Source of the DNA: an uncultured Bacteroidales bacterium
GTDB taxonomy: Bacteria; Bacteroidota; Bacteroidia; Bacteroidales; UBA7960
Assembly (NCBI GenBank): GCA_964589855.1
Contig: CAZPVB010000001.1
Coordinates: 25,622-89,621 of the forward strand
Direction of reading: 5' to 3'
DNA: 64,000 bases
Of this stretch, positions 1-57,401 are shown one piece after another. The position numbers and the translations under genes were made by a program. The notes beneath the pieces are model-generated. The model made no database searches. It was not told the DNA's origin and saw nothing but the letters and a program-made list of their open reading frames with translations. Each line of letters starts with the position of its first letter. Within the stretch, counting starts at the first letter, position 1.

Positions 1-262
1 AGTTTATCCTTGTATCTCCTTCCTTATGGTCTTTGAAGTTTTTGGGGTCGCGTCCCATCACAAAAAGGTTATCATCAAAGAGTCCGACTGCCCTGATATG
101 GTCAACGCCTATTTCCCTGTGTGCAGCATCCAATTGATCGAGACAGTCTTTTCTGCCCATCCACCTCATCTGGTCAATATTTCCCAGACCTTTCCATGTA
201 TGATTGAAATACTGCGATGCCTTATGATATTTAGGTTTGATGAGCAGTTGAGATCTATTCAT
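1..262 (-). CDS. Glycoside hydrolase, GH39-like TIM barrel, N-terminal fragment (gene continues beyond the left edge of the window)
   Basis: I translated the minus strand from the ATG at 262-260: MNRSQLLIKPKYHKASQYFNHTWKGLGNIDQMRWMGRKDCLDQLDAAHREIGVDHIRAVGLFDDNLFVMG... The frame stays open to position 1. The ...LDQLDAAHREIGVDHIRAVGLFDD... segment resembles the N-terminal strand pattern of GH39 xylosidase/iduronidase-type enzymes. The + strand ORF 26..295 is its antisense shadow. Confidence 0.5.
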   Translation of the reverse strand, partial: MNRSQLLIKPKYHKASQYFNHTWKGLGNIDQMRWMGRKDCLDQLDAAHREIGVDHIRAVGLFDDNLFVMGRDPKNFKDHKEGDTRIN

Positions 263-3312: not shown

Positions 3313-4932
3313 TTAATTATATCCAGGGTTTTGTATTATGACTCCATCTGTTTCTTCAATCACATATTGGGGTATGGGTAATAGAAGTCGGTCCTCAGTA
3401 ATATTTGATTTTCCCTGCGTCTGCATAACCTGAATAGCTCTTTGTGGTCTTCTTATCAGGTCAAACCATCTCTGCCCTTCAAAAGCAAGTTCAAGTCTTC
3501 TTTCATGATATACTTTATCCAGAAACTGCATGTAATCCAGATCAATATAATCAATGTCTGATGTTTCATGAATGGGCAGCCCCAAAGCACGTCTTTTAAT
3601 TTTGTTCAGGTATTCGTATGCATCGGGGGTAGGCCCGTTATTGATCTCATTTTCGGTTTCAGCAAACATCAGATATACATCTGCAAGTCTTAAGATGAAA
3701 AAGTTATCATCAGCTTCGCCGTTCTCCGTTTCTTCATAATCTTTATATTTGTTTACATTGAATGGTGCAATATCATAATCAACAGGCAGTCCCTCTTCTT
3801 CTGCAGTATTATAATAGTCAAGAATGGTTACTTCTTTGCGCAAATCACCTTCGCCAAATAATTCAACAATAGAAGTGCCAGCAGGTACATTGTAGTTTTC
3901 GCCTCTGGGATCATTTGATGTGGTTGGTATTCCGATGCCAAAACCGCCCCTGGCAAATGCACCTTCTTCATCACCCATGTAAGCAGATCCTCTGAACCTT
4001 GGCATGTACGAATTATTATAATAACTCCCTATTCCGTTTCTTTGTGGTTTATACACTCCTAATCCATATCCTTCTCTTTCATAGAAATGCTGACCTGACA
4101 TAAAGTTGATTTCAAAAATAGACTCCTTCCCAAATTCATTTTCTCTTGTAAACAAATCAGCAAAGTTCTCTTCCAGTGAAAACTGATTGGAGTTGATAAT
4201 TTCCCATAAAATATCTCTGGATTTCGCAAAATTTCCCGAATCAAATGATCCCATGGTCAGGTAAACCTTAGCCAACAATGCTTTTGCTGCCCAGTTGGTA
4301 ACTCTTGCAATATCTTCATTGCCCCATGATGAAGGTAGTTTTTCTACAGCAAACAGCAAATCAGGAATAATGCCCTCTTCATAAACTTCTTTATAGGGTG
4401 TTCTTGGGATGCTTGCTTCTTTAGGGTCGGTTATCTCTTCCAGAATTAGAGGAACATCTCCATACAATCTCACCAGGTTGAAATAAAACAATGCACGTAA
4501 GAACCGACTTTGCGCTTCAATCTGTATTTTAAAATTATCATTTAAAGAAGTTGCCTTTACCCTTTCAATGGTGGTATTTGCTCTTGCGATGCCAATATAA
4601 CTGCTGGAAAAAATATTCATGGTAGTATAACTCTCGGAGGACATAGTAAAGTTGTCAATGTCATTGCCCAGCAAAGAGTTATAAAGAGCATCATCTCCGG
4701 GATTAGCATCATCAGAAGCAATTTCGAGGTATCTTACTAAAATTCCATTGTAATAATCGGCGCGAACGAGAAGATTATAAACCCCTGCCAGGGCCATGTC
4801 AAAATCATTTTCGGTTTGAAAAAAGTTTTCGATGGTAGAAGCCGCCGGATTATCTCTTTCAAGGAAATCATCGCTACATTGGCAGAAAAGTACGGTAAAG
4901 AAAAGGATAATTATACGTTGTAACTTATTCAT
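3313..4932 (-). CDS. susD: SusD/RagB-family outer-membrane glycan-binding lipoprotein (PUL A)
   Basis: 539 aa with a lipoprotein signal (LFCQC SDD). It has typical SusD segments: FLRALFYFNLVRLYGDVPL, ADVYLMFAE, ERRLELAFEGQRWFDLIR. It starts 12 nt after the SusC stop. Confidence 0.95.
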   Translation of the reverse strand: MNKLQRIIILFFTVLFCQCSDDFLERDNPAASTIENFFQTENDFDMALAGVYNLLVRADYYNGILVRYLEIASDDANPGDDALYNSLLGNDIDNFTMSSESYTTMNIFSSSYIGIARANTTIERVKATSLNDNFKIQIEAQSRFLRALFYFNLVRLYGDVPLILEEITDPKEASIPRTPYKEVYEEGIIPDLLFAVEKLPSSWGNEDIARVTNWAAKALLAKVYLTMGSFDSGNFAKSRDILWEIINSNQFSLEENFADLFTRENEFGKESIFEINFMSGQHFYEREGYGLGVYKPQRNGIGSYYNNSYMPRFRGSAYMGDEEGAFARGGFGIGIPTTSNDPRGENYNVPAGTSIVELFGEGDLRKEVTILDYYNTAEEEGLPVDYDIAPFNVNKYKDYEETENGEADDNFFILRLADVYLMFAETENEINNGPTPDAYEYLNKIKRRALGLPIHETSDIDYIDLDYMQFLDKVYHERRLELAFEGQRWFDLIRRPQRAIQVMQTQGKSNITEDRLLLPIPQYVIEETDGVIIQNPGYN

Positions 4933-21770: not shown

Positions 21771-24700
21771 ATGAAGATCATTTTACACAATTTTTGTCTG
21801 TTTGCACTTCTTTTAGCAGTGCAAACAATTAAAGCGCAGGAATCAGACACCAACAGTAAAGTACTAATTGGAATTGTAACGGATGATTATACCGGAGATC
21901 CTTTACCAGGAACAAATATATATGTGAAGGGAACTACCCATGGTACTGTAACAGACATGGATGGCAATTACTCGTTGGATTTAAGCAATTACACTGATCC
22001 GGTTATCATATTTTCATACACTGGGTATATAACCGAAGAAGTTCAGCCCGGCAATCAGCAAGTCCTGAACATCTCACTATCCATGAATATCACTTCCCTT
22101 GGTGAGGTACAGGTAGTTGGTTATGGTGTTCAGCGCAAGAGATCGGTTACCGGTTCAATATCTTCTGTTGATGCCGAAACATTGAGCAGAAGTTCTTCCA
22201 CAGGTTTGGATCAGGCCTTGCAGGGTAAATCAGCAGGAGTTTTTGTTTCTCAAAACTCTAATGCTCCCGGTGGCGGTGTTTCCATCAGAATTCGTGGCAT
22301 CCATTCAACTACCGGAGGCAATGAACCGCTTTATGTTGTAGATGGAGTGCCGGTAAATAGTTCCAGTGATTTTGTCAGCGTTGTTAGCGGCGGGCAGGGC
22401 GGTAGTCCTTTGAATGTGATAAACCCTGAAGACATAGAATCTATAGAAATCCTTAAAGACGCTTCCGCAGCTGCCATCTATGGCACCCGCGCTGCTGCCG
22501 GGGTAGTTTTGATCACAACAAAAAAAGGGAAAAAAGGCGAACCTCAGGTTCTTTTTAATTCTTATTACGGTGTGCAGAATGTTACTAAAAGAATTGACCT
22601 GACCAATGCAGAAAATTTTGCCATACTCGACAATGAAATGCGTGCCAATGCAAAAAAACCTCTCAATACTCAATTATTAAACCCAGTACAATTAGGAGAA
22701 GGCACAAATTGGCAAAACCAGATATATACCGAAGGGGTAGTACAAAATTATAACCTTTCGGTTAGTGGTGGAAATGAAAGATCAACTTACATGCTTTCAG
22801 GAAATTACCATCAGAATAACGGAGTGGTTAGTAATTCAGGATTTCAACGATATACCTTCAGAATCAATACAAGCAATGAGTTGAAAGACTGGTTGAAAAT
22901 AGGAAATAATTTTACGTATACAAATACCGGTGAAGATTTTGTTATTACCGACAGCGATACCTGGGGAGCGATAAGTAATGCCTTGCGGCAGATGCCAACA
23001 GTACCCGTTTTTCTGGACAATGGCAAATATGGAGGTATGGCCGATGTGTTTGATTATACGGTACGCAACCCCGTTGCCATTGTAGATGAATGGAAACAGG
23101 ATATTGTAAAAGACTATGTTCTGGGTGATTTAAACCTGGAGATTAATCCAGTTGAGAATCTCACCTATCGCTCGGTTCTGGGCCTGGAATACAGGGCGGG
23201 TTCACAGTCATTTTTTCAACCTGCAAATATTGGCGGTGGTCTGGTAGATGAAATAAATATAAAAAAGGAATACCGAAATACCAGTCAGAAACTTTTGTAC
23301 GACAACATTCTAACCTATGCAAATCAGTTCGGAGATATTCATAATTATTCTGTAATGATCGGTACCAGTTTTCAGCAATGGGAAGGAAACGCCGTTAATG
23401 CCCAGGGGCAGGAATTTCCCAATAATGATCCGGATTGGGACCTGAGTATGTCCACAAACGGTACTCGCAACGCCGGGGGTTCAACCTGGAGGGGAGCATA
23501 TGTATCACAATTCGGAAGGATCACTTATGATTATGACAATAAGTATTTGCTCACTGCCAACATTAGACGAGACGGTTCCACCAAATTTGGTTCGGAAAAC
23601 CGTTATGGCATATTTCCTTCCTTTTCTGTAGGATGGATCTTTACCGATGAGGCATTTATGGCCCGGGTACGTGAAATTCTCACGGTGGGGAAATTAAGAT
23701 TTGGATACGGAGTTGTGGGAAGCGATGCCATTGGTAATTTCCGGTATCTTTCATTGCTTAAAGGTTTCGAATATACATTAAACGGACAAACCGCAAGAGG
23801 ATTTGCCCCCCAGAGTTTAGAGAATCCTGCCATCAGATGGGAATCTTCTGAGCAATTCAGTTTAGGAGCCGATCTGAGCTTTTTGTTTGATAAGATAACC
23901 CTCATTCTGGATTATTACGAAAAAAACACAACCGGCATGCTTATCCCTATGCCAGTACCAGCCACATCAGGAATCTATCCTAAGGTGCCTTCCAATCAAA
24001 ATCAACTTGCACAGGCATTTCCTATTGTAAATGTAGGGGGAGTTAAAAACACTGGTTTTGAAATGGAACTCACATACAGAAAATCCGAAGGTGTTTTTCA
24101 TTACGAGGTGGGTGCCAACTTTGCCTATATGGAAAATCTTGTTACCGATCTGGGTTATGAAGGCAATTCCTTTAACTCTTATCCTTTTGGAGGATCAACC
24201 GTTATCCGCACAGAGTTAGGGCAACCAATCGGATCGTTTTACGGATATGTGGCAGATGGTATCTTTACGGACTACGATGATATTGCCCAACATGCCAACC
24301 AGGGAAATCAGGATCCCTACGTTCATGATCGCAATATGGAACCTTCCCCTCACCGCTACACAGCCCCGGGAGATATAAGATTTAAGGATATGAACCGGGA
24401 TGGTGTTATTGACGAGAAAGACAGAACTTTTATTGGAAGTCCTTTTCCCGATTTCACCTATGGTCTCAGCCTTGGAGCCAAATATAAAAACTTTGAAATT
24501 TCTGCATTTATACAAGGTGTTGCCGGTGCAGAGATCATGAACCTAAACCGCTACTTTACTGAAGGCATGGTGGGTGGCGGCAACTTTGCAGAGGATGCCA
24601 TGAACCGGTGGACGGATGAAAACCCTGATCAGGATTTCCCCAGGGCTATCCTGACCGATCCAAACAGCAACACCCGAATCTCTTCCCGATGGATTGAATC

Positions 24701-35411: not shown

Positions 35412-37559
35412 ATGCACAAAAGAAAAGAGATACCTTTCGAAAAATACAATTTCCGGAGAAAACAATTCAAGGCCAAAGATCTCCCCTATTTAATGGGAAA
35501 TAATGAGATGGGAGGATTGGCGCATTTGTCAGGACTGGGATTTGAGAAACTATTCTTTACAGATGTTTGGGATACTGAAAAATCAAGAATGGGACTACCC
35601 GGACCGCTATTGATCCACGAAAATATTAATCCTGGTGATATGGAAACCGGAGACTTCGAAAATGAACTGACATTAAAGGAAGGAATACTAACCACCCAAG
35701 TGACCTTGAATGATCAAACCGGATACAAATCCGAGATTTTTTTCTCCAAATCCAACCGCCACCTTCTGTGCATGAAAATCACACCAAAGCCAGGGATGAA
35801 GGGTGAATGGAAGCTGGTTTTACCCGGCAGGGATTTCATATTGAAGCCCCATTCAAAAGGGTTGAAGGGAGAGCACACACAAACTGAATCATTCTCTGAA
35901 ATATCATGGGCAATCAGTTCCAATAGTGAACTAAGCGTTGATCCGGATAACACCGTTAAACTCCATGCAGGTCAGAATGAAGACATTGAGTTGTATTACA
36001 GCGTTACAACCCAATTTGATGGCGATAACTTTACCTTCCAGTCGGAAGATTATGTTAATAATTGCGGCGGGTTCGATGCATTGAAGCAGGAACTGATCCA
36101 TTTTTCTGAAAAAGAATTTAGGTCGATTGCATCCATCATCTTGCCCGAAGGAGAACATGCGAAATGGTTTTACCGGGCAATTTTTGCATTGTATAACACC
36201 AGCGGGGCAAAACACTTTTTGCCCGCCGAGTTACAATTCTCAAAACCAAGTCCACATTGGAACGGACACCCCTTTACATACGGACAGGGAGGATGGGGAG
36301 TTTTTGCCTTCACTTTTCTGGGTGCTTTTGATAAGGCGGAAAACATGGCGAAATGGCATTATAATCCTGAGGTACTCAAAGAAAATGTGCACCGGATGTT
36401 TCCTGACAAAGGTGAAATTGATGTATATTTTAAGGATGAATACAAAGGAAAACATCATTACATTGATGACAATGAAAAAAATGCCATTTCATTTGGACAT
36501 GAACTTACAGCGGAGGGTTACAACATTCCTATATCCCATACCCTTGGCAAATACACCATGCACTGGGATTGGCAAATGCATTTAAATTCATTTGCAGCCT
36601 CTTTCTTCCACACGCTAAGCAGATATGCAAATAAACCTGAATTAAAGAAAACTCTCTCCTACCCTGTACTGAAAGGAACTGCAGAATTGTGGTGTGCATT
36701 GCTGAATTGGGATGAAGAAAGAAAATTCTGGTACTTGCCACCCTTGCTGTCTGTATCAGAGAATATTCTTGAAAAATCTGTATTGGATGCCATCATCGGA
36801 GCCCGATGGAACCTGCTTGTTGCAGCAAGTTATGCCCGAAATCTGCATCAGGATCTGGTTTTGGCAGAAAAGTGGACCAATGTAGCGGATAATATCTACA
36901 TACCTGAAAATGATACTAATTATCTTGAATACCTGGATGATGATGAAAAAAGAGAAGGGGGAGGATATTTTGGTATAAGAGCTCCAATGGCACTGGCATT
37001 TCCATACCTTGAGGCACTTGAGAAAATCGACAGACAAAAAGCAAGAATTACGCTTGACAAGGCATGGAAAAGGAATAAAGAAGGTCATGGTATGATTGCC
37101 TATGTCGCCAACTGGTTTGCCCTTACTGAGTCATACCTGGGTTACAACGACAAGGCATACCAAATGGCCTCTTTAATATTCAAAAATGTGGATCCGTCTG
37201 ATGCCGCCATTTGCGAGGCATACGAGTACGAGGACAATGACAATAAAAAGGGCGACTGGATACCCAAATTCCCCTATTACCTTACCGGATACAGTGCATT
37301 TATCTGTTCCACCATTTCGTTTCTTATTCAATCATTTAACGGTCAGATCAGAGTTTTTCCCTGTTTGCCCAAACATTGGAAAGATATTGAGATATACGAT
37401 CTGCCCTGCGAGAGTGGATTTACGGTATCAGCCGAATTAAAGGATGGAAAGGTGAAGTGGATAGAGATTAAAAAAGATCATAAAATAATATTGGAAACAA
37501 ATTCACATAAAACTTTTAAAATCAATGAAAACAAAGAAATTGAAATTCATGAAGAATAA
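35412..37559 (+). CDS. Putative (alpha/alpha)6-barrel glycoside hydrolase, distantly GH95-like (tentative); no signal peptide
   Basis: 715 aa. The N-terminal MGNNEMGGLAHLSG recalls the GNG.(L/M)G motif of GH95. The C-terminal QIRVFPCLPKHWKDIEIYDLPCESGFTVSAELKDGKV resembles the (I/L)LPALP..W..G...GL.ARGGF.V....DGK ending of GH95/GH65-type enzymes. The family assignment is not secure. Confidence 0.45.
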   Translation: MHKRKEIPFEKYNFRRKQFKAKDLPYLMGNNEMGGLAHLSGLGFEKLFFTDVWDTEKSRMGLPGPLLIHENINPGDMETGDFENELTLKEGILTTQVTLNDQTGYKSEIFFSKSNRHLLCMKITPKPGMKGEWKLVLPGRDFILKPHSKGLKGEHTQTESFSEISWAISSNSELSVDPDNTVKLHAGQNEDIELYYSVTTQFDGDNFTFQSEDYVNNCGGFDALKQELIHFSEKEFRSIASIILPEGEHAKWFYRAIFALYNTSGAKHFLPAELQFSKPSPHWNGHPFTYGQGGWGVFAFTFLGAFDKAENMAKWHYNPEVLKENVHRMFPDKGEIDVYFKDEYKGKHHYIDDNEKNAISFGHELTAEGYNIPISHTLGKYTMHWDWQMHLNSFAASFFHTLSRYANKPELKKTLSYPVLKGTAELWCALLNWDEERKFWYLPPLLSVSENILEKSVLDAIIGARWNLLVAASYARNLHQDLVLAEKWTNVADNIYIPENDTNYLEYLDDDEKREGGGYFGIRAPMALAFPYLEALEKIDRQKARITLDKAWKRNKEGHGMIAYVANWFALTESYLGYNDKAYQMASLIFKNVDPSDAAICEAYEYEDNDNKKGDWIPKFPYYLTGYSAFICSTISFLIQSFNGQIRVFPCLPKHWKDIEIYDLPCESGFTVSAELKDGKVKWIEIKKDHKIILETNSHKTFKINENKEIEIHEE

Positions 37560-39021
37560 AAGTATTCAAATGACAACATTGGCAGTGTTTGTTACTGTGG
37601 GGTTCTTATTGCTGCAATCCTGCAACAACACGGGTTATCAGGTTACAGAATGGCGTCAGAGTACCGACAGTGAACGGTGGGTACAACAGGATTGGAATGC
37701 CGGATCGAATGAAGAAAGTACCAAAGTGTTTCACATCGATACCATGCGTAAACAACAGGTGGTGGATGGATTCGGTGCCTGTTTCAACGAACTGGGTTGG
37801 GATGCATTGAGTGTACTCGACAAAACAGAACGGGAAGCCATCATTGAAGAATTATTTTCCACAGAAAAAGAGGAGGGGGTAAAATTCACCATTTGTCGTA
37901 TGCCCATTGGTGCCAACGACTTCGCACGCGATTTTTATTCGTTGAATGACACTCCCGGAGATTTTGCAATGGAAAATTTCAATGTGGAGCGTGATAAAAC
38001 AAGTCTGATACCCTACATTAAAAGCGCCATGGTTTACAATCCTGATCTGAAGGTATGGGGTTCACCATGGAGTCCGCCGGCATGGATGAAATCCAATAAC
38101 CACTACGCCTGCAGAAGTGCCCCGGTGAATGACCTTCCTGAAGACAGACAGGGAGAAGAAAACGTTACACAATTTATTATGGAACCGGAATACCTGGATG
38201 CTTATGCGCTCTATTTTTCTAAATACATTGACACCTATGCAGCGGAAGGCATACCCATTTATGCTGTACATGTGCAGAACGAACCCAATTCATGCCAGAA
38301 CTTCCCCAGCTGCATCTGGGCTGCTCCTGACCTGGGCAGATTCATTGCCGGACATTTAGGACCTTACTTCAAAGAGAACCACCCCGACGTGGAAATTTGG
38401 CTGGGCACCATTGAACGACCCGACATTGACAGGGTGGCGACAGTACTGCAAAACAACAATGCAAGTCAGTATATCAACGGTGTGGGGTTTCAGTGGGCAG
38501 GCAAGGGTGCCATACCTTTTGTAAACCTTGCATACCCCCATCTTAAACTGATGCAAACAGAAACGGAATGTGGAAACGGATGGTTGCCATGGCATGAAAA
38601 TGCTCAAAATGACTGGGAAGCCCTTGAATATACCTTCCACCTGATGGAGCACTATTTTCATCATGGCGCCAACTCTTACCTTTATTGGAACATTGTGTTG
38701 GATGAAACCGGCAAAAGTACCTGGAGCTGGAAACAAAACTCCATGATCACCATCAACTCCGAAACTGCCGAAGTAACCTATAATCCGGAGTTTTACCTGA
38801 TGAAACATTTCAGTCATTATATTGAACCCGGCGCAGTAAAACTGGATGTACCCAACAACGGTCAGTTACTCGTTTTTCAAAATCCGGACAGCAGCGTAGT
38901 TTTGCAGTATTATAATGAGACGAAAAATGAAGAGCAGGTTACTTTCCAACTGGGCGATAAAGAGTACACTTTCAACCTTGAACCCAAATCGCTCAATACC
39001 ATAACATTGGCAAAAAAATAA
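37525..39021 (+). CDS. GH30-family glycoside hydrolase (glucosylceramidase-like), lipoprotein
   Basis: 498 aa. An alternative start at 37549 gives MKNKSIQMTTLAVFVTVGFLLLQSC. Family-typical segments are VDGFGACFNELGW, CRMPIGANDF and WGSPWSPPAWMK. The acid/base motif is AVHVQNEPN and the nucleophile region is LMQTETECG. Confidence 0.85.
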   Translation: MKTKKLKFMKNKSIQMTTLAVFVTVGFLLLQSCNNTGYQVTEWRQSTDSERWVQQDWNAGSNEESTKVFHIDTMRKQQVVDGFGACFNELGWDALSVLDKTEREAIIEELFSTEKEEGVKFTICRMPIGANDFARDFYSLNDTPGDFAMENFNVERDKTSLIPYIKSAMVYNPDLKVWGSPWSPPAWMKSNNHYACRSAPVNDLPEDRQGEENVTQFIMEPEYLDAYALYFSKYIDTYAAEGIPIYAVHVQNEPNSCQNFPSCIWAAPDLGRFIAGHLGPYFKENHPDVEIWLGTIERPDIDRVATVLQNNNASQYINGVGFQWAGKGAIPFVNLAYPHLKLMQTETECGNGWLPWHENAQNDWEALEYTFHLMEHYFHHGANSYLYWNIVLDETGKSTWSWKQNSMITINSETAEVTYNPEFYLMKHFSHYIEPGAVKLDVPNNGQLLVFQNPDSSVVLQYYNETKNEEQVTFQLGDKEYTFNLEPKSLNTITLAKK

Positions 39022-39047
39022 ATCCACTTGAGTAACCACAAATTCGA

Positions 39048-39078
39048 AACCTTCTGCTTAATCAATAAGCAGAAGGTT
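39048..39078 (+). terminator. Strong hairpin terminator after the GH30 gene
   Basis: The 13-bp perfect stem is AACCTTCTGCTTA / TAAGCAGAAGGTT with loop ATCAA, followed by ATTTATCTT. It starts 27 nt after the stop. Confidence 0.75.
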
Positions 39079-39174
39079 ATTTATCTTCAACGGGATTCAA
39101 AAGTTAAACTGATTGAAATATCATTTAACTTTAAAAAACATTCATAACAAATAAATAATTAAAAATCTTTTTTT

Positions 39175-39600
39175 ATGTTGAAAAACATTCCTGAAATTCT
39201 CACACCAGACTTACTGAAAATACTGGATGAAATGGGACATGGTGACGAGATCGTACTGGCGGATGCCAATTTTCCTGCTGCAAGCAATGCAAATAAACTC
39301 ATCGTTTACAGAGGAGTTGGAATTATTCCCATCCTGAAAGGAATTTTGGAGTTGCTTCCGCTGGATACCTATGTTCCCACTCCTGCCAAACTGATGCAAC
39401 CGGTGCGCGAAAAAGAACAACCACCAGCCATATGGCAGGAGTACAAAACAATTATTCAGGAGCAACATTCACCTTTTAATGATTTTGAACTGATTGAACG
39501 GTTTGATTTCTATCAACACGGCCGTAATGCCTATGCCATCGTTGCCACAGCAGAAAAAACAGGATATGCCAACATCATATTAAAAAAGGGGGGAGTATAA
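39175..39600 (+). CDS. fucU: L-fucose mutarotase (RbsD/FucU family)
   Basis: 141 aa. [35 protein letters not shown]...[21 protein letters not shown] is collinear with E. coli FucU ([35 protein letters not shown]...[21 protein letters not shown]). Confidence 0.9.
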   Translation: [141 protein letters not shown]

Positions 39601-39628
39601 AAAACAATTATAAACCCATAACTATAAG

Positions 39629-39769
39629 GTGAAACCGATCCCTGACAAAGTTTTTGACACACATGCACATGATTATAATACGCGACATGTAAAAAACATG
39701 CAGTCAGAGTGCTGGCGAGCTCCATCTGACCTATTTAATCAAATTACCAACAAATGAATATCTTTGTAT
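39629..39769 (+). repeat. Conserved ~135-nt intergenic element, copy C (sense on + strand)
   Basis: It aligns by eye with the reverse complements of 46542-46672 and 55775-55907. The shared blocks are GAA(A)CCGA.CC.TGACA-N7-T(G/T)ACAC, ATGATTATAAT, TGGC(C/G)AGC(T/A)CCAT(C/T)TG and TTAATCAAATTA..AACA(A/G)AT(G/C)AA. Confidence 0.8.
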
Positions 39770-39776
39770 AATACCA
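39769..39776 (+). promoter_or_regulatory. Candidate -7 promoter box TATCTTTG directly 3' of element copy C
   Basis: It is a perfect match to TAnnTTTG and ends 11 nt before the ATG at 39787. Confidence 0.35.
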
Positions 39777-39786
39777 GAATCAGTCT

Positions 39787-41616
39787 ATGAAACCTTTTAT
39801 TCTAACCGTCGCTTGTGTATTTTTATGTTGTTCCGTTCATTCCAGTGAATGGACTTCGCAGGTAAAGTTACCTGACGGGACTAATTTTTCTTTTTGGAAA
39901 GATTCAACACAGTATAGTAGAACATATTATGTAGACATTAACCACCCTGAGGCATCAGATAAAAATCCCGGCACCCGGGCTCTACCCTTTGAAACTATCC
40001 GGAAGGCATCTCAAACAGTTCGACCGGGAGAGGAAATTGTTATTCGAGGTGGGGAGTACAGAGAACCCATTCGCCCTGAACAAGAAGGCACTTCCCCACA
40101 TAAAATGATCCGGTACCGTTCTTATCCTGGTGAAGAGGTGGTTATTAAAGGTTCAATTGAAATTAACCCCAGGTGGGTTCTTTCCAAAGCACCCAATAAT
40201 AAACCTCTCTCATTTAAACTTTGGCAATGCGATCTGAGAGAGATATTTGCAGATATGGAAATAGAAAATTTCTTATTACCCAACGCTACAGATTATGAAA
40301 TGGAACTGATGCATTGGGCTACTGATTGGAAAAACCATCCTCCTTTCACCCTGCCAAGAGGTATGCTTTTCCAGGATGGGCAAAGAATGGTACAAATGGT
40401 ATCATACTTTGATCTATCAAAAGTGCCAGGTTCTTTTTGGGTGGATACACTCCATCAACGGCTGCATATTCATCCATTTAATCAGGATAAACCTTCCCTT
40501 GCTGACTTTGAAATAACGCGTTTTGAACAACTTGTTTATCCTGTTAACGAAAGGATGGGGTATATAGTTATTCAGGGTATCCATTTTAAGCATGCAGGTA
40601 ATGGTTTTGCCAGGACAAATACCGGAGCGGTTAATCTAAGATCAGGTCATCACTGGATTATTGAAAACTGCCTTGTTAGCCAGGTAAATTCTGTAGCTAT
40701 TGAGATTGGTGCAAGAATACGGGAACGGGCCGAAACAAGTGAAGAAGAAAAAGGGTGGATTGACAACCATCCGGGTGGGAACCAGGTTATAGGTTGCCAT
40801 ATAAATGATTGCGGTACCGGTGGAATACAAGGACATTCAAATAACCAGGCTTTACTGGCAAACAACCATATTCATAATATTGGATGGCAACATGTTGAAA
40901 TTTACTATGAATGTGCAGCTATAAAACTGCTCAGAACGAACCAAACACTCGTGATTCAAAACCGGATACATGATGTAACGGATGCCAATGCCATATGGCT
41001 GGATTGGGATAATGAAAATTCCCGTGTCACAAGAAATATTATCTACAATGTATCAAAGACCTTCAATGGTGGGATTTTTATCGAAGCTTCGCGTACTCCC
41101 AACATCATCGATCACAATATTCTCTATAAAGTAAAGGGATTCTCCATCAATTTGGGAGATACGGATCATGCTTTGGTTTTTCATAATCTTGTTATGAACG
41201 GAGAAGTGCCCTTAGCCAGTCATGTAATTACGGAAAGAACGTTGCACGGTAAGAAAATGACCAGCCGTAATAATCAAATCAAAAACAACATCTTTTACCA
41301 GAACCAGCAAATGCCCAGGATTGACAATAAGGATAATATTTGCAATTACAATCTCTACCAAACCATGGATTCAGTTTTTGATAAATGGCAACAGAAAGGT
41401 TGGGATACTGAGGGCCATATTCAGGATTTTACAATTCATTCATCTCCACAAATGAATATACTCTCAATTAAACAGATCACTCCCTGGAAAACAGTCCAGC
41501 CAATTACTTTACTTGGATCAGATTATTTCTATAACCCCAGACCTGATGAAAATGTGAGCCCGGGACCATTTGAAAAAAAATTTTTCCATTCAACAACGTT
41601 TCGTCTTATGGATTGA
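39787..41616 (+). CDS. Secreted parallel beta-helix protein, distant member of the 292/31097 family
   Basis: 609 aa with a signal peptide (MKPFILTVACVFLCCSVHS). The N-terminus YYVDINHPEASDKNPGTRALPFETIRKASQTVRPGEEIVIRGGEYRE is beta-helix-like. It shares a signature with the other family members: YECAAIKLL (versus AHDAAGIK), DANAIWLDWDNENSRVTRNII (versus HAIWFDWDNKDYVIKNSLI) and GGIFIEASRTPN (versus GIMLEGSRKPG). Confidence 0.75.
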   Translation: MKPFILTVACVFLCCSVHSSEWTSQVKLPDGTNFSFWKDSTQYSRTYYVDINHPEASDKNPGTRALPFETIRKASQTVRPGEEIVIRGGEYREPIRPEQEGTSPHKMIRYRSYPGEEVVIKGSIEINPRWVLSKAPNNKPLSFKLWQCDLREIFADMEIENFLLPNATDYEMELMHWATDWKNHPPFTLPRGMLFQDGQRMVQMVSYFDLSKVPGSFWVDTLHQRLHIHPFNQDKPSLADFEITRFEQLVYPVNERMGYIVIQGIHFKHAGNGFARTNTGAVNLRSGHHWIIENCLVSQVNSVAIEIGARIRERAETSEEEKGWIDNHPGGNQVIGCHINDCGTGGIQGHSNNQALLANNHIHNIGWQHVEIYYECAAIKLLRTNQTLVIQNRIHDVTDANAIWLDWDNENSRVTRNIIYNVSKTFNGGIFIEASRTPNIIDHNILYKVKGFSINLGDTDHALVFHNLVMNGEVPLASHVITERTLHGKKMTSRNNQIKNNIFYQNQQMPRIDNKDNICNYNLYQTMDSVFDKWQQKGWDTEGHIQDFTIHSSPQMNILSIKQITPWKTVQPITLLGSDYFYNPRPDENVSPGPFEKKFFHSTTFRLMD

Positions 41617-42063
41617 TAATTGCGACTGGCAATGATGATAATGGGGTGAAATTTGAGCACAACCCAAATGCCATGCCCTTTCCACCTCAGAAATCTCAAA
41701 ATGGTGCATCCTATACAGACGTATTAAACATAACATTTTAAAAATCAAATGTTTGAGTGTTTTTCATCAGAGCCTGCTTAACCATTGAGAGGAATCGATG
41801 AAGTCGGGCTCATAGAACATTGGGCTTTTTAAAATACCTAATGATGGAACCAATAACTGTGTTAATTACTTAAAACCCTATTGCCACACGCTATATTCAT
41901 CCCGTCAAACCCGACTCCCTTAAACCTGATGGTCTGCTAATTCTCAAAATTCACCTTGAAAAAAATTATTGTGCATTTTCAGTTCCCCTTTAAAGTTTTG
42001 CAGCTTTATCAAGTTTTCAGGGCTGGAATGCAACCAACTGTTCCAAAAAGAAAACCCCTGCCA

Positions 42064-43572
42064 TCACGCAAAAAAAATCATCTCCTCTTTATCACGAGGG
42101 GCCGAACCTTCAAAATTATCCTGGCGAATATCATGAAAATTCTCTGCCCATAAGGTGTGCTTGAAGAAACGGTGCATGCTCTCATCTTCCCAGGTAATAT
42201 TGGCATTCCGAATCTGAACTCCTTTGACATGCTTCAGGAAAACAGCAGGAATATCATGTGCAAAAATGGTCTTTTCGGGATCAAGAAATGGACGAAGATC
42301 AAAATTACCACCGTAGGTCTCCTGGATTTTTCCATTGCGAATGGTTAGGTTTAATCCATCGATAATGACATCAGATATTACACTTTCTGCAGATCCATAT
42401 ATAAGAATTCCATTCTCGCTGATGGCATTTATATTGTAAAAACGAATGTTTTTTATGGTACCCAGCTTCTTCTCCAATTTTGCACTCTGGCTAACGGAAA
42501 TATAAATAGGTTCAGCATTACCCCACCAATCGCCGGAATGAAGACGGGTTTCTATGGAAATATTCGAAAAAAAAATATTCTCAAGAGACCTATCCTGGTT
42601 TACAAACAAACCAACACCCCGGTTGGAATCACGGATTATTATATTATTAAAAGAATAATTCTTCAGTTCATTTTGGTCAACCCCACATCCTGATACCACT
42701 TGAGCGGGTTTGAAGCAAACAGTTACTTACTGCAACATTACGGGAGGTATGGCGTATATCGCGGAATCCTGGATGACCATGATGCACACTATAACCTGAG
42801 AAAGCAAGAGCATCATCGCCCCCCTGATGTTGCAGTTCGAGATCACAACATTGCTGGATGAAGTAATGTTTAATCCGTCCGCATTTGCCATTTCTATATT
42901 ATTACGAATCTTAATACCTGTAATAACAACTCCTTCTCCATCAGCAATGTGAAGGGCCCAAAATGGGGTGTCTTTAAGCGTAATGTTTTCTATATGCAAA
43001 TTTTCGGGTTGCGAAAACTATAACATTTGCTGGGGACGTTTATCCTCGAATGGTACAACCGGCCCATCCTGAATACCAAGGGAAGGATCATGATAATCCA
43101 TCCCCTGCCGGGTGTATTTTTTAATCTCACCGGGTAATTCCTTCACTACATCATGAAACACATATGCTCTTCCATTTCCATCTATAGTGCCACGCCCGGT
43201 AATAGAAACGTTTCAATATTAACTGAAAACAATATCCCGGCAACAGCTGAACCGGTTTGATCAGAACCAATAACATTATCGATGTCCCAGTAATAATCAT
43301 CCAGATTGGGTGAACCTTTAAGTACGGCCCCATTTTGCAGATGCAAGTTAATGTGAGAACGCAAATGAATGGTGCCTGTAAAAAAAACAGCAGGAGGTAT
43401 TATTACGGTTCCCCCGTCCTTTTTGTCCACTTCATCAATAGCTTTTTGAATGGATTCTGTGTTTAATGTTTGACCATCCGCGACGGCCTCATGTTCAGTA
43501 ATTAAAGTTTTTGATTCTGAAGCTTCTATGGAATAGCAAAATCCCCAAAAAAGAATAAGAAAAAATTTTCAT
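42064..43572 (-). pseudogene. GH28-like (polygalacturonase-superfamily) pseudogene, with at least 4 frameshifts and 1 in-frame stop
   Basis: I reconstructed the gene across frames. The pieces in order are the signal peptide (M)KFFLILFWGFCYSIEA, TEHEAVADGQTLNTESIQKAIDEVDKKDGGTVIIPPAVFFTGTIHLRSHINLHLQNGAVLKGS, NVSITGRGTIDGNG, RPQQML*FSQPENLHIENITLKDTPFWALHI, NADGLNITSSSNVVISNCNIRG(G)DDALAF, SGIRMW and VDQNELKNYSFNNIIIRDSNRGVGL. The ORF track shows only fragments: 43182-43430, 42727-42999 and 42064-42699. Confidence 0.8.
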
Positions 43573-43590
43573 GATAATTTTTGTTTAGAG

Positions 43591-53067: not shown

Positions 53068-53112
53068 ATATCAAAAAACTGAGACCATTTAATCTTCAAA
53101 AACAGTTATTTC

Positions 53113-53817
53113 ATGTTCACAATAAAAATATTGAAAAAACTCCTCTACCTGATCTTAATTGCAGGGATCATTTTGGCAGGCAGATATTTTTTGTATCAAA
53201 AAAAGTTGTGGGATTTTAGTTTCGGAAAAGAATTAAAAATTGATGACACTGCTATTGTGATCAAAGAAATAAAAAAAATTTCGCAACTGTTTGCCTCTGT
53301 TTATTATGATGAACTGGTACTCGATACCGTAAAAATGGCCTCCAAAGGGACTGCCTACAGACTTAAAGACTGGATACAAATACCTGATCCTTCTCGTATT
53401 ACCAGACCAGAAGATGTTATCAACAAACTGCATTTTGTTGTAATTGCCAGGGGAGAAATAATGGCTGGTTTTGACTTTTCCAAGATAGAAGACCATCATA
53501 TGACCCTTGAAAATGACGAAATTATTTTTGTTTTACCCCCCGCAGAGATTCTGGAAGTGATCATCAATCCATCTGATTATGAGATATTTATTGAAGAGGG
53601 CAATTGGTCGCTGGATGAAGCAGTTGCACTAAAGAAAAAGGCAGCAAAAAAAATGACAAAAAGGGCCGTTGAAAGAGGTATCCTTGAAGAGAGCGAAAAG
53701 AAAGCCATATTGGTTTTAGAAAACTATTTCTCTTTGCTGGGATTTGAAAATGTAACCATCAAAACAACACCAGCGGGCGATTCTGAGCAGCGTTGGGTTT
53801 CCCCTTCCTTAGAGTGA
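53113..53817 (+). CDS. DUF4230-family membrane-anchored protein (second tandem copy)
   Basis: 234 aa with an N-terminal TM helix. It matches the preceding gene in IKKISQLFASVYYDELVL...ARGEIMAGFDFSKIEDHHMTLENDEIIFVLPPAEILEVIINPSD...LENYFSLLGFENVTI. Confidence 0.7.
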   Translation: MFTIKILKKLLYLILIAGIILAGRYFLYQKKLWDFSFGKELKIDDTAIVIKEIKKISQLFASVYYDELVLDTVKMASKGTAYRLKDWIQIPDPSRITRPEDVINKLHFVVIARGEIMAGFDFSKIEDHHMTLENDEIIFVLPPAEILEVIINPSDYEIFIEEGNWSLDEAVALKKKAAKKMTKRAVERGILEESEKKAILVLENYFSLLGFENVTIKTTPAGDSEQRWVSPSLE

Positions 53818-54850
53818 AGGCAAATGTAGACCCCACTCCCGGCATACTCCTCACGTTAATGGTTTGTTGGTGTGCCTCTATTATATGCTTTACGATGGCC
53901 AATCCCAATCCCGATCCTCCTTCACCGGTTTTGCGTGTCCTGCTGCGATCGCCACGATAAAATCGCTCAAAAATTCTGGGTAGTTCCTCTCTGGGGATAC
54001 CCAACCCACTATCGGTAACCTCAACAAGAATGTTTTCATCCATATCAAAGAAACTGATCTTGGTGCGTCCGTTTTCTGTTCCATACTTAATGGAGTTGAG
54101 AATAAGATTGGTGAGTACCTGCTCTATTCGTTTCTTATCGGCATAAACCATCAGCGGACTTTCATGTCCTTTGGCAAAATAGATTCTGATATTTTTTTTC
54201 TCCGCTTTAATTTCAGAAAAGTCAATAACATTGCTGGCAAGAGCAACCAGGTCGAAATTTTCATATTCGAGTTTTAGTTCTCCCGCCTCAAAACGCGAAA
54301 TAACTTCCAGATCATTAATAATATTGATCATACGTTCTATGCTCTGTTCAGTGCGCTCCAGGTATTTACGGTTTATCTGCGGGTCATTGATACCACCGTC
54401 TAATAAAGTGAGCACGTATCCCTGTATGTTAAATATGGGGGTTTTTAATTCATGCGACACATTCCCCAGAAACTCTCGTCGGTATGCTTCCAGTTTTTTC
54501 AGATCGGCAACCTCTCTTGCCTTGTTTTCGGCCCATTCCTGAACTTCCAGGTTGGCTTGTTCTATAATATCATTGCGGTTAAACAATGATATTTTACCTG
54601 GTTTTTTTGACGATTTTAACTCATGAATTGTCTTATAGATAAGCCGTATCTTTTCGTAAATAAACTTATCCAGAATGTATTTATAGGTAAAAAAAGATAT
54701 GAAGAAAAGGACAAGGACGGTGACAATCAAAAGGAATATATTGAGTGGTGTTCGCCAGATCAGGTAACTCAATAAATGAATTACTGCATATATGCTGGTG
54801 GTTACGGAAGATGCAATTACGGAAAGTCTTTGGGAACTGGTTGTATTCAT
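53759..54850 (-). CDS. Sensor histidine kinase, PhoR/EnvZ-like (two N-terminal TM helices, HisKA, HATPase)
   Basis: The first ATG is at 54850; the ORF track uses a TTG at 54856. The H-box is [61 protein letters not shown] closely parallels E. coli PhoR ([39 protein letters not shown]). Confidence 0.88.
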   Translation of the reverse strand: [363 protein letters not shown]

Positions 54851-54926
54851 TAACAAACAAGATTGAAAAGGAAGGAAATATCAAAACTATCAAAAATCAC
54901 CAGAAAGGTCAGTTGGCAGGATGATA

Positions 54927-55619
54927 TCATATCTCGAATTTATATCCTACCCCTTTTACCGTTTTGATCGACTCGATACCAATCTTTTCCCTTAGTTTTC
55001 TCACATGCACATCAATGGTTCTGTCTCCTACAATTACATTGTTTCCCCAAACCTTAGAAAAAATCTCTTCCCTTGAAAAAACTTTATTTGGCTTGGTAGT
55101 AAGCAAAGAAAGGAGTTCAAATTCTTTTTTAGGCAAAATAACTTCTGAATCGCCCATGATTACAATGTATCTTTCTTTATCTATGATTAAATTCCCTACC
55201 TCTATGGTTTGCTTCTCCTCCTTTTTCTCTTCTTTAGTTGAATATCTTCTCAAAAGTGCTTTAATTCTACTGATCAGCAAACTGGGTTTGATAGGTTTGG
55301 AAACATAATCATCGGCACCCGCTTCAAAACCGGCAAGTTGCGAATAATCTTCACTACGCGCAGTTAAAAACATGATAATAGTATTCTCCAGACTGGGTAT
55401 TTTCTTCAATTCTGTGCAGGTTTCCATGCCATCCATCTCTGGCATCATTACATCAAGAATAATGAGATGGGGATTGATTTTTCTGGCAGTTTCAATAGCA
55501 TCCAATCCATTCTCATTTGTGTATACCTGGTAATTTTCTTTTCGTAGGTTATAACTAATGAACTCGAGAATATCAGGCTCATCATCTACGAGTAAAATTT
55601 TATAATCTTCGTTTTTCAT
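54927..55619 (-). CDS. OmpR/PhoB-family response regulator (receiver plus winged-helix DNA-binding domain)
   Basis: The first ATG is at 55619 (MKNEDYKILLVDDEPD); the ORF track uses a TTG at 55649. The receiver carries LDVMMPEMDG and FLTARSED. The C-terminal winged helix carries LPKKEFELLSLL...REEIFSKVWG...DRTIDVHVRKLREKI...VKGVGYKF. Confidence 0.9.
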   Translation of the reverse strand: MKNEDYKILLVDDEPDILEFISYNLRKENYQVYTNENGLDAIETARKINPHLIILDVMMPEMDGMETCTELKKIPSLENTIIMFLTARSEDYSQLAGFEAGADDYVSKPIKPSLLISRIKALLRRYSTKEEKKEEKQTIEVGNLIIDKERYIVIMGDSEVILPKKEFELLSLLTTKPNKVFSREEIFSKVWGNNVIVGDRTIDVHVRKLREKIGIESIKTVKGVGYKFEI

Positions 55620-55774
55620 TTCTATTACAAAATTTTTATGTATTTTCAAGGCGTAAAGATAGGCAATATTTTACTTGCCAACAATCAGACAATGCCGTTC
55701 CATACTCATAATCAACATTATTAATTGTTTGTTAATATTTACTTAACCTTAAATTAAATCTGAAAGAGTGTGTA

Positions 55775-55907
55775 GTTGATCTGTTTATAATTTGATTAAA
55801 ACAGGTCAAATGGTGCTCGCCAACAAAATTGGTTTTGTACTTTTGCCGTTTACTGATATTATAATCATCCGAGTGAGTGTAAATACGATTGTCATGGCTC
55901 GGTTCAT
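55775..55907 (-). repeat. Conserved ~135-nt intergenic element, copy B (sense on - strand), upstream of the response regulator/kinase operon
   Basis: See copy C for the shared blocks. Hand count: 41 of the first 50 nt are identical to copy A, and TTAATCAAATTATAAACA is 18/18 identical. Confidence 0.8.
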
Positions 55908-56216
55908 TGTATTTTTGTTTCAAAAACAATATTGAAACGAGTAATATGATATTTTTGAAAAATTACAGTGTTTATTTTTCCAGACATAGAGCATGTTTTT
56001 GGGTTTCCTTATTTGGTTTGGCGAAATAATAATCTTGTTGAAAATAATAAAAATGAGAATGGGTTTCATCATTTTATAAAAAGATAAACCAGATGCTAAC
56101 AACATTATTGATGCAAACGATCATGATCATTAGGAAACCAAAACGATTATGCAGTCAGAAAAAGGCACATAACGCTGCAATTATGGTAGATATAAAAACA
56201 GATAAAAACAAAACAC

Positions 56217-57401
56217 ATGAAAAAAAGGCATAAGTACCTGGCAATAATTCTTATCATTGTACTGGGAACACCCATTTTTTTGCATTTGTGGTGGAAGTTT
56301 TCACCCAGCCGACCCTTGTCGGTTTTTATTATGGATAAAAGTGCAGCAACAAAAAATATGGCAGAGCAAAGATCTATCAACTGGCTGCTAAACCACTATA
56401 AATTTGTAAAAAAAGATTTCACTTCCTATGATCCCCGGCAGGATTATTTTGGTTTTTTTGCCCTGTCCGACTCCCGTTACGAAATCCGCGACCTGACCAG
56501 CAAAACCAGAAGCGATATTGAAAATCTGGCAAATCAATATGATCTGGCATATTTTACAAATAGTTACGGGGTGTATGGGGCAGATTTTTACACTGACAAT
56601 AAGAACACACAAAATGAGATTGGAATGCTGTATGGCGGAATTTCTGACCATGACCTCGTTTTTATAGAGCAAATGATGAACCAGGGCAAACCAGTGATTG
56701 CCGAATATGTATTTTTCTCACCTCCAACTAAACCCGGACAAAGGAGCAAAGCAGAATCAATATTTGACATTGAATGGAAAAACTGGTCGGGTAAATTTTA
56801 TCAGAATTTCGATATATCCAAAAACCCTCCATTACCTTCCTGGGTTGTAAAAGCATATGAGAATCAAAACAACCAACAATGGAATTATAAAAATAATGGC
56901 ATCATACTTTTAGGTGAAAATGGAGAAATGGTGGTTTTGGAATATCCTCATCATTTAAATACTCCTGTTACATTGATCATTACAGAAAAAGACCACAGAA
57001 AAACTTACGGCATGAGCAACCGCATACCCTACCCCGGATGGTTTGACCTGATAGAACCTCTCCATTCACAAAAGGAAATTATTTCGTGGTTTGAACTGGA
57101 TGTAACTCCCTTAGGACAAGAAATTCTTGCTGAACATGATCTCCCCTCACGTTTTCCCGCCGCAATAGCAGATAAGGAGGCACCTAAAAATATGTATCTT
57201 GCCGGGGATTTCGGACACACAGAACTCAGTAAACGCTTTGTACAAATCAAAGGGGCGAGATTTCACGAGTTATTTCTTGCAGACCTGAATGATTTCACTG
57301 ACAACAGAGGCGTTTATTTTGCCTATTATCTGCCCTTGATGAAAACATTTCTCAATGATTATTATCAGGAAATTAAAAAAAATTCAGAAAGAGGAAACTA
57401 A
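56217..57401 (+). CDS. Hypothetical membrane-anchored protein (no recognisable domain)
   Basis: 394 aa with an N-terminal TM anchor (YLAIILIIVLGTPIFLHLWW). It is a long uninterrupted ORF with normal composition. I recognise no motifs. Confidence 0.6.
   Translation: MKKRHKYLAIILIIVLGTPIFLHLWWKFSPSRPLSVFIMDKSAATKNMAEQRSINWLLNHYKFVKKDFTSYDPRQDYFGFFALSDSRYEIRDLTSKTRSDIENLANQYDLAYFTNSYGVYGADFYTDNKNTQNEIGMLYGGISDHDLVFIEQMMNQGKPVIAEYVFFSPPTKPGQRSKAESIFDIEWKNWSGKFYQNFDISKNPPLPSWVVKAYENQNNQQWNYKNNGIILLGENGEMVVLEYPHHLNTPVTLIITEKDHRKTYGMSNRIPYPGWFDLIEPLHSQKEIISWFELDVTPLGQEILAEHDLPSRFPAAIADKEAPKNMYLAGDFGHTELSKRFVQIKGARFHELFLADLNDFTDNRGVYFAYYLPLMKTFLNDYYQEIKKNSERGN

Follow-up and report, generated by a model that had tools for sequence, protein, structure and literature searches.

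The 64,000-nt stretch of DNA analyzed here, referred to as the window, belongs to contig CAZPVB010000001.1 of an uncultured Bacteroidales bacterium and contains three copies of a short noncoding element, here named A, B and C. In a reading made from the sequence alone, without database searches, the element had been described as a conserved block of about 135 nt located immediately upstream of three genes. As argued below, it probably derives from insertion sequences (ISs) of the IS110 family. According to Pfam, copy C, the focal copy, is located between a gene for an RbsD/FucU protein and a gene for a beta-helix protein. Copy A has a gene of glycoside hydrolase (GH) family 67 upstream and a 63-aa open reading frame (ORF) followed by a GH28+LamG gene downstream, while genes for an OmpR-type regulator and a histidine kinase are located downstream of copy B. 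The insertion site of copy A is 4 nt beyond the stop codon of the GH67 gene, and its terminal ATGAA (46547-46543) opens the 63-aa ORF 46356-46547(-). In copy B, the right terminus has decayed to ATCAA, and the OmpR-type response-regulator ORF begins 126 nt downstream. The features are as follows, with E values from the independent profile described below and with insertion points marked by a caret.

39629..39633, forward strand: left-flank half-site GTGAA of copy C, a degenerate left arm of the target ATGAA; the flank in the family is (G)ATGAA, with the variants TTGAA, GTGAA and CTGAA
39634..39758, forward strand: copy C, a miniature element of 125 nt that starts with ACCGATCCCTGACAA and ends with ACCAACAAATGAA; nhmmer E 2.3e-34
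39657..39675, forward strand: left-end motif ACACACATGCACATGATTA of copy C; family consensus ACACACACG-NNN-ATGATTAT, common to all miniature families and to the left ends of full-length IS110-family elements
39743..39758, forward strand: right terminus ATTACCAACAAATGAA of copy C; family consensus ATTATAAACAGATGAA, with ATATAAACAGATGAA as the counterpart in full-length ISs
46543..46667, reverse strand: copy A, a miniature element of 125 nt located after ATGAA (46672-46668); nhmmer E 1.9e-28
55776..55902, reverse strand: copy B, a miniature element of 127 nt located after ATGAA (55907-55903); nhmmer E 1.7e-25
56217..56221, forward strand: unoccupied target ATGAA at the start codon of a 394-aa gene (AAACACATGAA^AAAAAGG), occupied in the relative L009

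A profile built from the three copies matched the window at 39626-39758(+), 46675-46542(-) and 55910-55775(-) in an nhmmer search, with no fourth copy. Since this test is circular, the search was repeated with a profile of 71 copies from other genomes, from which the rows of the window had been left out. The same three places were recovered (E 2.3e-34 to 1.7e-25), which bears out the three copies proposed in the sequence-only reading. The next-best match, at 22595-22655 (E 0.04), is located within a 1058-aa ORF and is therefore attributed to chance. Pairwise identities among the window copies are 67-72%, as compared to 74-87% identity to the family consensus. The alignment contains the four shared blocks and the variable spacers as they had been described, and the Pfam assignments (beta-helix protein, 63-aa ORF plus GH28-LamG, OmpR-type regulator/kinase) agree with the earlier statement that the genes downstream have no relation to one another; gene duplication does not account for the pattern. 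That the conservation is at the nucleotide and not at the peptide level was likewise confirmed, as the short ORFs that begin at the 5' ATG stop after 20, 33, 40 or 42 codons across copies. A small protein was considered, given that three 5' ATGs are in frame, but the stop positions differ. When a 42-aa version was searched against 5.8 billion proteins, only three short matches and no longer protein were obtained.

The terminal ATG of copy A is the exact start of the 63-aa ORF (MNLSSERRREELTGEI...), which stops 33 nt before the GH28 gene and has no match in Pfam. This ORF may be a genuine small gene that was hit at its start codon, or an artifact of the ATG contributed by the element.

The position of the three copies in front of genes raises the question of regulation. 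According to one explanation, the element is an exapted cis-regulatory leader, a portable cassette with a 5' untranslated region and an upstream ORF (uORF), or a gene for a small RNA (sRNA), which is kept in place for the control of the gene behind it. The element precedes genes in the sense orientation and supplies an A/T-rich leader and a start codon, and the old ATG is turned into a uORF of 20-42 codons. Moreover, CATCTG in block 3 has two possible pairing partners, C(A/G)(G/C)ATG in block 2 and the terminal CAGATG, in which the start codon is located, and copy C abuts a -7-like box, TATCTTTG. Block 3, TGGCGAGCTCCATCTGACC, is located at 39713-39731, 46588-46570(-) and 55823-55805(-) and is nearly invariant in the miniature family, with GAGTTCCATCTGAC in some of the other miniature families; it is the CATCTG within this block that is complementary to the terminal CAGATG.

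The folding results argue against a regulatory RNA. No match at the gathering score was obtained for the window with Rfam 15, and no match at E<=10 overlaps the copies, in line with the earlier statement that the element was not recognized as a named riboswitch or sRNA. Folding of single copies on both strands gave z-scores of -1.7 to +0.8 relative to shuffled sequences and thus no signal, and the RNAalifold consensus has essentially no structure for the three copies and an energy of only -0.68 kcal/mol for 74 copies, that is, no global fold. Long-range stems proposed by hand (block 2 with block 3, and TCGC with GCGA) are paired in approximately 88% of the cells but hardly vary, so they carry no covariation signal and are uninformative. 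Two small hairpins in the left end have modest compensatory support, which is confounded by the sub-family structure. Neither the frame nor the length of the uORF is conserved. The element is neither a riboswitch nor an sRNA.

The -7-like box at 39759-39766 directly follows the last base of copy C and is located 20 nt before the ATG at 39787; its earlier placement at 39769-39776, 11 nt from the ATG, was incorrect. The element-free locus L078 has TGTATTTA at this place where the window has TATCTTTG, so the junction region differs between the occupied and the empty allele.

The distribution of the element was studied by scanning one genome per species with the pattern ATGATTATAAT-N50-64-TTAATCAAATTA, which identified 75 loci (given here with the prefix L). 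Of these, 71 are from metagenome-assembled genomes (MAGs) of uncultured Bacteroidales/Bacteroidota, while the remaining four are from other phyla and represent chance matches to the pattern that are not supported by the profile. In total, nhmmer identified 109 matches in these loci, about 85 of them full length, so that the further copies for which the sequence-only reading had suggested a search are abundant. A single MAG, CAYPFV01, contains at least 81 matches (62 of full length), of which 38 are located no more than 200 nt from a contig end, at 33 different ends. The matches pile up at contig ends as assembly-breaking repeats do, which also means that the element breaks MAG assemblies. The element is thus a high-copy dispersed repeat in a clade of uncultured Bacteroidales MAGs, many of which, as judged solely by their isolate names (CSSed165cm, GEM2, DLM2, SL_3KL), seem to come from soda-lake-type samples.

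Members of the family are 125-135 nt long, start with CCGAGCCATGACA directly after (G)ATGAA and end with ..TTAATCAAATTATAAACAGATGAA, usually followed by an A (approximately 85 copies), with a variable center of about 35 nt that occurs in several types. The two ends (CCGAGCC.. and ..CAGATGAA) are not inverted repeats, in agreement with the earlier observation that terminal inverted repeats (TIRs) are absent. The pentamer to the left varies (TTGAA, GTGAA, CTGAA), while the pentamer to the right stays ATGAA or decays to ATAAA or ATCAA. Since the two vary independently, there is no target-site duplication (TSD), and the element has neither of the hallmarks, TIRs and TSD, of a MITE (miniature inverted-repeat transposable element) in the strict sense. 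Copies are frequently arranged head-to-tail, with one ATGAA shared per junction, and the arrays mix at least three families in which the left approximately 50 nt and the last approximately 18 nt are common but the interiors differ.

At least two further miniature families with different interiors were noted (L044:5915-6110, L012:1-195(-), L023:300-480(-), L035:4900-5340(-)), one of which has a version of about 200 nt with repeated AAAGCGCGTAGCGCTGACATTAT hairpins. Within the family of the window copies, a sub-family carries a GC-rich hairpin insert of 25-55 nt (CCCCGTAAGAGAAGAACGGGG) between GAGCTCC and CATCTG. Copies of this sub-family are located at:
L070:7251-7407(-), L019:3608-3761, L013:7449-7605, L022:4680-4830(-) and L055:3131-3297(-)

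Comparisons of orthologous sites demonstrate that the element is mobile, as it is polymorphic for insertion among close relatives. Locus L009, from the MAG CAYPFV01, is orthologous to window positions 52553-56260 with 88.8% nucleotide identity, but copy B is absent from it, and the empty site reads ..GAGAAATGAA^CACTGT in the orientation of the element. Conversely, L009 contains a copy (3514-3645), followed by an element of a second family, exactly after the ATGAA start of the orthologue to 56217-57401, where the site is empty in the window. Copy C is absent from L078, a metagenome contig that encodes a beta-helix protein with 97% identity: the intergenic region between the RbsD/FucU and beta-helix genes is 61 nt in L078 and 186 nt in the window, and the difference, 125 nt, is the length of the element. 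It is also absent from L077, which encodes a 79% orthologue of the beta-helix protein and has unrelated sequence at this place. No copy is present upstream of the GH28 orthologues in L079-L081, where the synteny differs, which makes this comparison uninformative for the site of copy A.

We also examined the position of the copies relative to genes. Of the 51 copies that could be classified, 13 coincide with a start codon and another 19 are followed within 400 nt by an ORF in the sense orientation; in 13 the ORF faced is antisense, and nothing is nearby for the remaining 6. The earlier claim that the element is always located in the sense orientation upstream of a gene therefore applies to the three window copies and does not extend to the family. 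A long ORF opens with the terminal ATG in 13-17 copies; examples are those for a response regulator (MKVLIVEDN..) and a lipoprotein (MKKLFLISLIFTLVSC..). ATGAA(A), which encodes Met-Lys or Met-Asn, is the most frequent start of a gene. The 563 kb examined in these genomes contain 2642 ATGAA sites, 119 of which coincide with the first ATG of a long ORF, while 1900 are inside ORFs and 623 outside. The excess of copies at gene starts is about six-fold over all ATGAA sites but only about two-fold over the non-disruptive ones, and it could be accounted for by the purging of intragenic insertions together with an extended preference for G/A before and A after ATGAA. The element targets ATGAA, which is often a start codon, and rebuilds ATGAA at its own end, and this is probably why it is found in front of unrelated genes.

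These data also bear on the regulatory explanation. A quarter of the copies that could be classified are opposed by an antisense ORF, close relatives differ in the copies they carry, and several copies (ATAAA), besides copy B (ATCAA), have a decayed right terminus. The proposed long-range pairs, as mentioned, hardly vary. With no shared fold over 74 copies, presence and absence at orthologous sites and dozens of copies per genome, the cis-regulatory RNA or promoter that the sequence-only reading had implied is not supported, and we regard a leader retained for gene control as unlikely.

Another explanation is that recombination or gene conversion, and not transposition, has spread the promoter or operator of a single regulator, so that the element would be a regulon signal. 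The direct repeats TGACA-N7-TGACA, a TTGACA-N14-TATAAT-like pair and the several polysaccharide-utilization genes next to the window copies are consistent with this idea. A 14-nt spacer is wrong for sigma-70 promoters, however, and sigma-A of the Bacteroidota uses other motifs. Furthermore, the junctions are base-exact at ATGAA, copies form head-to-tail arrays and are nested inside another MITE, more than 80 copies are located beside functionally unrelated genes, and the full-length ISs described below have the same ends. A spreading regulon signal is accordingly the least credible of the explanations considered, with hardly any probability left to it.

Full-length relatives were identified by a scan of metagenomes at the Joint Genome Institute (JGI) with the family-neutral left-end pattern CCATGA-N10-13-ACACACACG-NNN-ATGATTAT, which yielded at least 120 loci. 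Among the matches listed, the spacing between left and right ends is mostly 33-44 nt. Other families have 68-74 or 195-344 nt, and in L126 and L137 the ends are 1526 nt apart. Between these distant ends is an ORF with the domains DEDD_Tnp_IS110 (1e-25) and Transposase_20, which is frameshifted in L126. Intact or near-intact versions of approximately 407-415 aa were detected with tblastn in L117 (positions 1006-2250), L176, L189, L191, L201 and L114. Three intact ORFs of 410-415 aa matched PF01548 with E values of 4e-27 to 7e-29 and PF02371 with E values of 1e-23 to 8e-22, and the recombinase is homologous to the IS621 transposase (8wt6; phmmer E 1.3e-12). The full-length relatives thus encode both the DEDD RuvC-like N-terminal domain and the C-terminal Tnp domain (Transposase_20) by which IS110 elements are recognized.

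The full-length ISs are about 1.5 kb long, with a left end (LE) of approximately 85 nt and a right end (RE) of approximately 185 nt. Every copy with its ends on the contig has the same layout, ..ATGAA^ACACCCATGAC..ACACACACGAGCATGATTAT, followed by about 40 nt and the recombinase gene, and thereafter a conserved noncoding stretch of about 130 nt, about 30 variable nucleotides and the terminus ..ATATAAACAGATGAA^A... All of them follow ATGAA and end with AAAC(A/T)(G/T/C)ATGAA, and their ends do not form inverted repeats. An alignment with five IS left ends shows CCATGAC, the palindrome, ACACACACG and ATGATTAT in common with the window copies, which also have the RE terminus A(T/A)TATAAACAGATGAA and the ATGAA target of the full-length ISs. 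The left end of the IS in L176 is identical to the family of the window copies (family 1) over CCATGACAAAGTTTTTGACACACA. By virtue of the shared left end and right terminus, the window copies consist of IS110-family ends with a different, short interior; they have both termini and the target of the ISs but, at 125-127 nt, are too short for a transposase, as expected of non-autonomous derivatives. The sequence-only reading had not recognized the element as part of an IS or MITE, whereas its ends are essentially those of an IS110-family IS.

Miniature and full-length elements also occur side by side. The IS in L126 is directly followed by a mini-element of approximately 99 nt, and a TetR-family gene starts with the ATGAA at the end of this array. 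In both L176 and L189, the right end of a miniature element (GGCGAGCTCCATCTGACC...AAACAGATGAA) is located immediately before the IS, with family 1 sequence in L176. In L150 (1-113) and L189 (1-81), the right end of another IS copy precedes the full-length IS, which indicates that whole elements also occur in head-to-tail tandem. Junctions between RE and LE thus exist in DNA in the form of head-to-tail arrays.

The full-length elements also weigh on an alternative within the mobile elements. Like the palindrome-associated transposable elements (PATEs; PMC3119063), the element is short and present in many copies, has neither TIRs nor a TSD, inserts 3' of a 5-nt motif in one orientation only and contains two small local hairpins with some compensatory change. 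Under this explanation, it would be a non-autonomous element of the IS200/IS605 type, moved as single-stranded DNA by a Y1 HUH transposase and inserted 3' of ATGAA as its target-adjacent motif (TAM), with an ATGAA of its own at the right end (for the concept of TAM and transposon-encoded motif, TEM, see PMC10055086). The hairpins are weak, however, and no matching near-terminal palindromes were found at the two ends. Searches with the TnpA proteins of IS200 and IS608 (tblastn) were negative in the genome loci and in the window, and among the matches listed, the only full-length elements with these ends and this target encode a DEDD recombinase of the IS110 family, and not Y1 TnpA/TnpB. Because of these full-length elements the assignment to PATEs was dropped; we consider it very improbable.

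In the RE of the full-length ISs, the consensus fold of the noncoding region comprises 40 pairs at -28.2 kcal/mol; one of its hairpins contains 6 compensatory pairs, and invariant G-U pairs favor the sense strand. It has no match in Rfam. Three unpaired or weakly paired segments of this RNA match DNA of the left flank, the left-end motif and the right terminus, respectively: the first segment, GAAAAUGAAAC, corresponds to the left flank plus ATGAA plus AC; the left-end motif ACACACACGAG has its counterpart in an internal loop, CACACACGACUAUUGCC, and the right terminus CAGATGAA^A in the terminal loop, UGAAGAUGAAAUUU. Several of the matches change together. The RE CATATGAA in L189 is combined with the loop AUAUGAA and the RE CACATGAA in L176 with the loop ACAUGAA, while the LE ACACACAGGAG in L176 is combined with the loop ACACAGGAC, as compared to the usual left-end-matching loop CACACACGA. 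Likewise, AAA-AUGAA in the first segment goes together with the flank aaa/taa-ATGAA in five loci and CAG with the flank cag-ATGAA in L176, and in L189 the segment fits the flank at two of three positions. This matching of loops to DNA is the signature to be expected if target and donor were recognized by RNA guidance, although the independent changes are few. The RE RNA was found only with IS copies; neither the window nor the genome loci contain it.

Elements of the IS1111 group have a short LE and a long RE with the bridge RNA located in the RE (PMC11208160). In IS621, the left target guide (LTG) and the left donor guide (LDG) pair with the bottom strand and thus correspond in sequence to the top-strand left arms of target and donor, including the core (PMC11208160). 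The loops in the full-length ISs identified here have the same polarity as LTG and LDG of IS621.

Taken together, we find it likely that the window copies are old, diverged, miniature non-autonomous derivatives of an IS110-family IS that were mobilized in trans by a bridge-RNA recombinase. The element would have kept only the cis-acting ends of such an IS, in an IS1111-like layout: a left end of about 50 nt with the right donor arm (RD), a small palindromic hairpin and ACACACACG-NNN-ATGATTAT, and a right terminus of about 18 nt, AAATTATAAACAGATGAA. A recombinase and its RNA, provided in trans by a full-length relative, would excise the miniature element, which would then insert 3' of (A/G)ATGAA^A. 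One RNA loop (..AAAAUGAA..) would carry the top-strand left target arm and core, and another (..AGAUGAA..) the top-strand right terminus of the element. The right terminus (left donor arm plus core) is identical in sequence to the left target arm with its core, so ATGAA would be regenerated upon insertion, with the junction ..GATGAA^A. A start codon that had been hit would thereby be rebuilt behind an A/T-rich leader, and the gene would keep an intact reading frame, which may explain why such insertions are tolerated. The new junction would be a fresh target, which fits the head-to-tail arrays. The placement in front of genes would then reflect the common ATGAA(A) starts and the purging of intragenic insertions. 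The blocks that are common to the window copies are those common to all families and to the IS, except for block 3, which is confined to the miniature families. The conserved blocks are thus better explained as cis sites that were needed for mobility in the source lineages than as sequences kept in place.

Several observations speak against this explanation or limit it. Neither a recombinase gene nor a bridge-like RNA was found in the 64-kb window or in the 75 genome loci, which are MAG fragments, and no multi-copy transposase was found among the 774 ORFs of the genome loci. The full-length elements start with ACACCC, whereas family 1 starts with CCGAGCC, so the right donor arms differ and the helper of family 1 is not among the elements recovered. 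Likewise, no helper with corresponding donor arms was found in the same genome, although 64 kb of the source genome and MAG fragments make for a weak test. The window copies are diverged from the consensus and yet absent from close relatives, which calls for diverse source copies or for later precise excision. In L078, about 30 nt beside the site of copy C reach only about 50% identity with the window, so this locus documents the absence of copy C but not a clean state before and after insertion. Concerning the RNA, the first segment in L150 does not fit the flank, the covariation of DNA and RNA comes from about 10 related IS copies with only two or three independent changes, and complementary segments resembling the right target guide (RTG) or right donor guide (RDG) were not convincingly identified in the RE RNA. 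Finally, the strong conservation of TGGCGAGCTCCATCTGACC in the miniature family, with no counterpart in the full-length IS, is unexplained.

We compared the element and its relatives to known systems. As in IS621 and the IS1111 group (PMC11208160), the full-length relatives encode an IS621-homologous recombinase with DEDD_Tnp_IS110 and Transposase_20 domains, have no TIRs, insert sequence-specifically, and have a short LE and a long RE with a predicted structured RNA, whose loops have the top-strand sequence of the left arms of target and donor. The window copies differ in that they contain neither the recombinase nor the RNA. The target is also different, being a start-codon context of 5-9 nt with hundreds of sites per genome and not a repetitive extragenic palindrome (REP), attC or an IS end, and, with a left donor arm that imitates the left target arm, insertion regenerates the target; the opposite has been stated for IS110 in general in a large survey (bioRxiv 10.64898/2026.08.14.744561). 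Moreover, a third RNA loop matches a motif in the LE about 30 nt inside the element, and no subterminal inverted repeats (STIRs) of 7-17 bp were identified.

The closest described element is MITEPpu9 of Pseudomonas putida, the ssr9 module of ISPpu9, which contains an sRNA gene, is present in 8 copies and targets REPs (PMC12288879). It is the only precedent that we found in the literature for the abundant, dispersed IS110-family derivatives described here, and it is low-copy. Both elements lack a transposase, have ends like those of the IS110 family, are also located beside ISs, and are proposed to be mobilized in trans. Unlike MITEPpu9, the element studied here lacks an RNA module, is present in 80 or more copies per MAG, is divided into several sub-families that form mixed arrays, and is located at start codons. 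The tandem noncoding units at IS110 loci (bioRxiv 10.64898/2026.08.14.744561) are also arranged head-to-tail and have kept matches to the left donor (LD) arm beside IS110, but the units described here are dispersed genome-wide away from ISs and their junction of LD with the right target arm (LD^RT) regenerates the target. We found no report of high-copy dispersed RNA-less IS110 derivatives or of an IS110-type element aimed at start codons, which, given an incomplete coverage of the literature, is weak evidence. IS492 of Pseudoalteromonas atlantica, another member of the IS110 family, is reportedly flanked by short direct repeats of the target, inserts site-specifically and restores the gene by precise excision. 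It is a full-length IS with the target CTTGTTA, in which it differs from the element studied here, and it is not known to have miniature derivatives.

For the annotation of the window, the three copies are selfish repeat DNA that should be masked and annotated as remnants of a mobile element, and they fail as candidates for a regulatory RNA. They represent a natural case of abundant and dispersed IS110-family derivatives that have neither transposase nor RNA; if they were indeed mobilized in trans, short donor ends would suffice. Their target is a start-codon context that is common to many genes, and the full-length relatives provide natural triples of RNA loop, target and donor in the Bacteroidota with which guide rules can be tested. 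More tentatively, and with considerable doubt, an RNA-guided (bridge-RNA) IS110 lineage in soda-lake-type Bacteroidales may have set its target guide, and likewise its donor arm, to the start-codon context AAAATGAA^A. Any insertion would then restore the start codon and provide a further target, and such harmless insertion would have allowed miniature RNA-less derivatives to spread to about 100 copies per genome as portable leader or uORF cassettes that alter the expression of the genes they hit. As to RNA-guided transcription by dCas12f-sigmaE, no link to the element was found.

Eight copies are nested in an unrelated, TIR-bearing MITE, and in six of these the left junction is TTGAA^CCGAG or a close variant. 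The flank common to the eight copies was considered as a transposase gene but turned out to be this separate MITE. The host MITE is about 150 nt long with the terminal inverted repeats TTAGTCTTTGCAAGAAAAC ... GTTTTCTTGCAGGCACTAA (L068:2360-2640, L028:3510-3790, L026, L019, L042, L002). The composite of MITE and element occurs at least six times with both MITE ends, which suggests either that it has spread after the insertion or that the site has been hit repeatedly. One of the nested copies adjoins a gene for tRNA-Ser. On the small contig L117, which carries an intact IS110-family element, positions 84-166(+) have a sub-threshold Rfam match to domain V/VI of group II introns (37.9 bits, with a gathering score of 40; E 2e-4).

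The surroundings of copies A and C in the window, positions 35412-49152, are dense with genes for polysaccharide degradation on both strands (GH30, RbsD/FucU, a Pel9A-like beta-helix protein, GH28+LamG and GH67) and constitute a utilization region of the pectin/xylan type. Within this region, the ORFs at 42064-43430 resemble fragments of a disrupted GH28/beta-helix gene.

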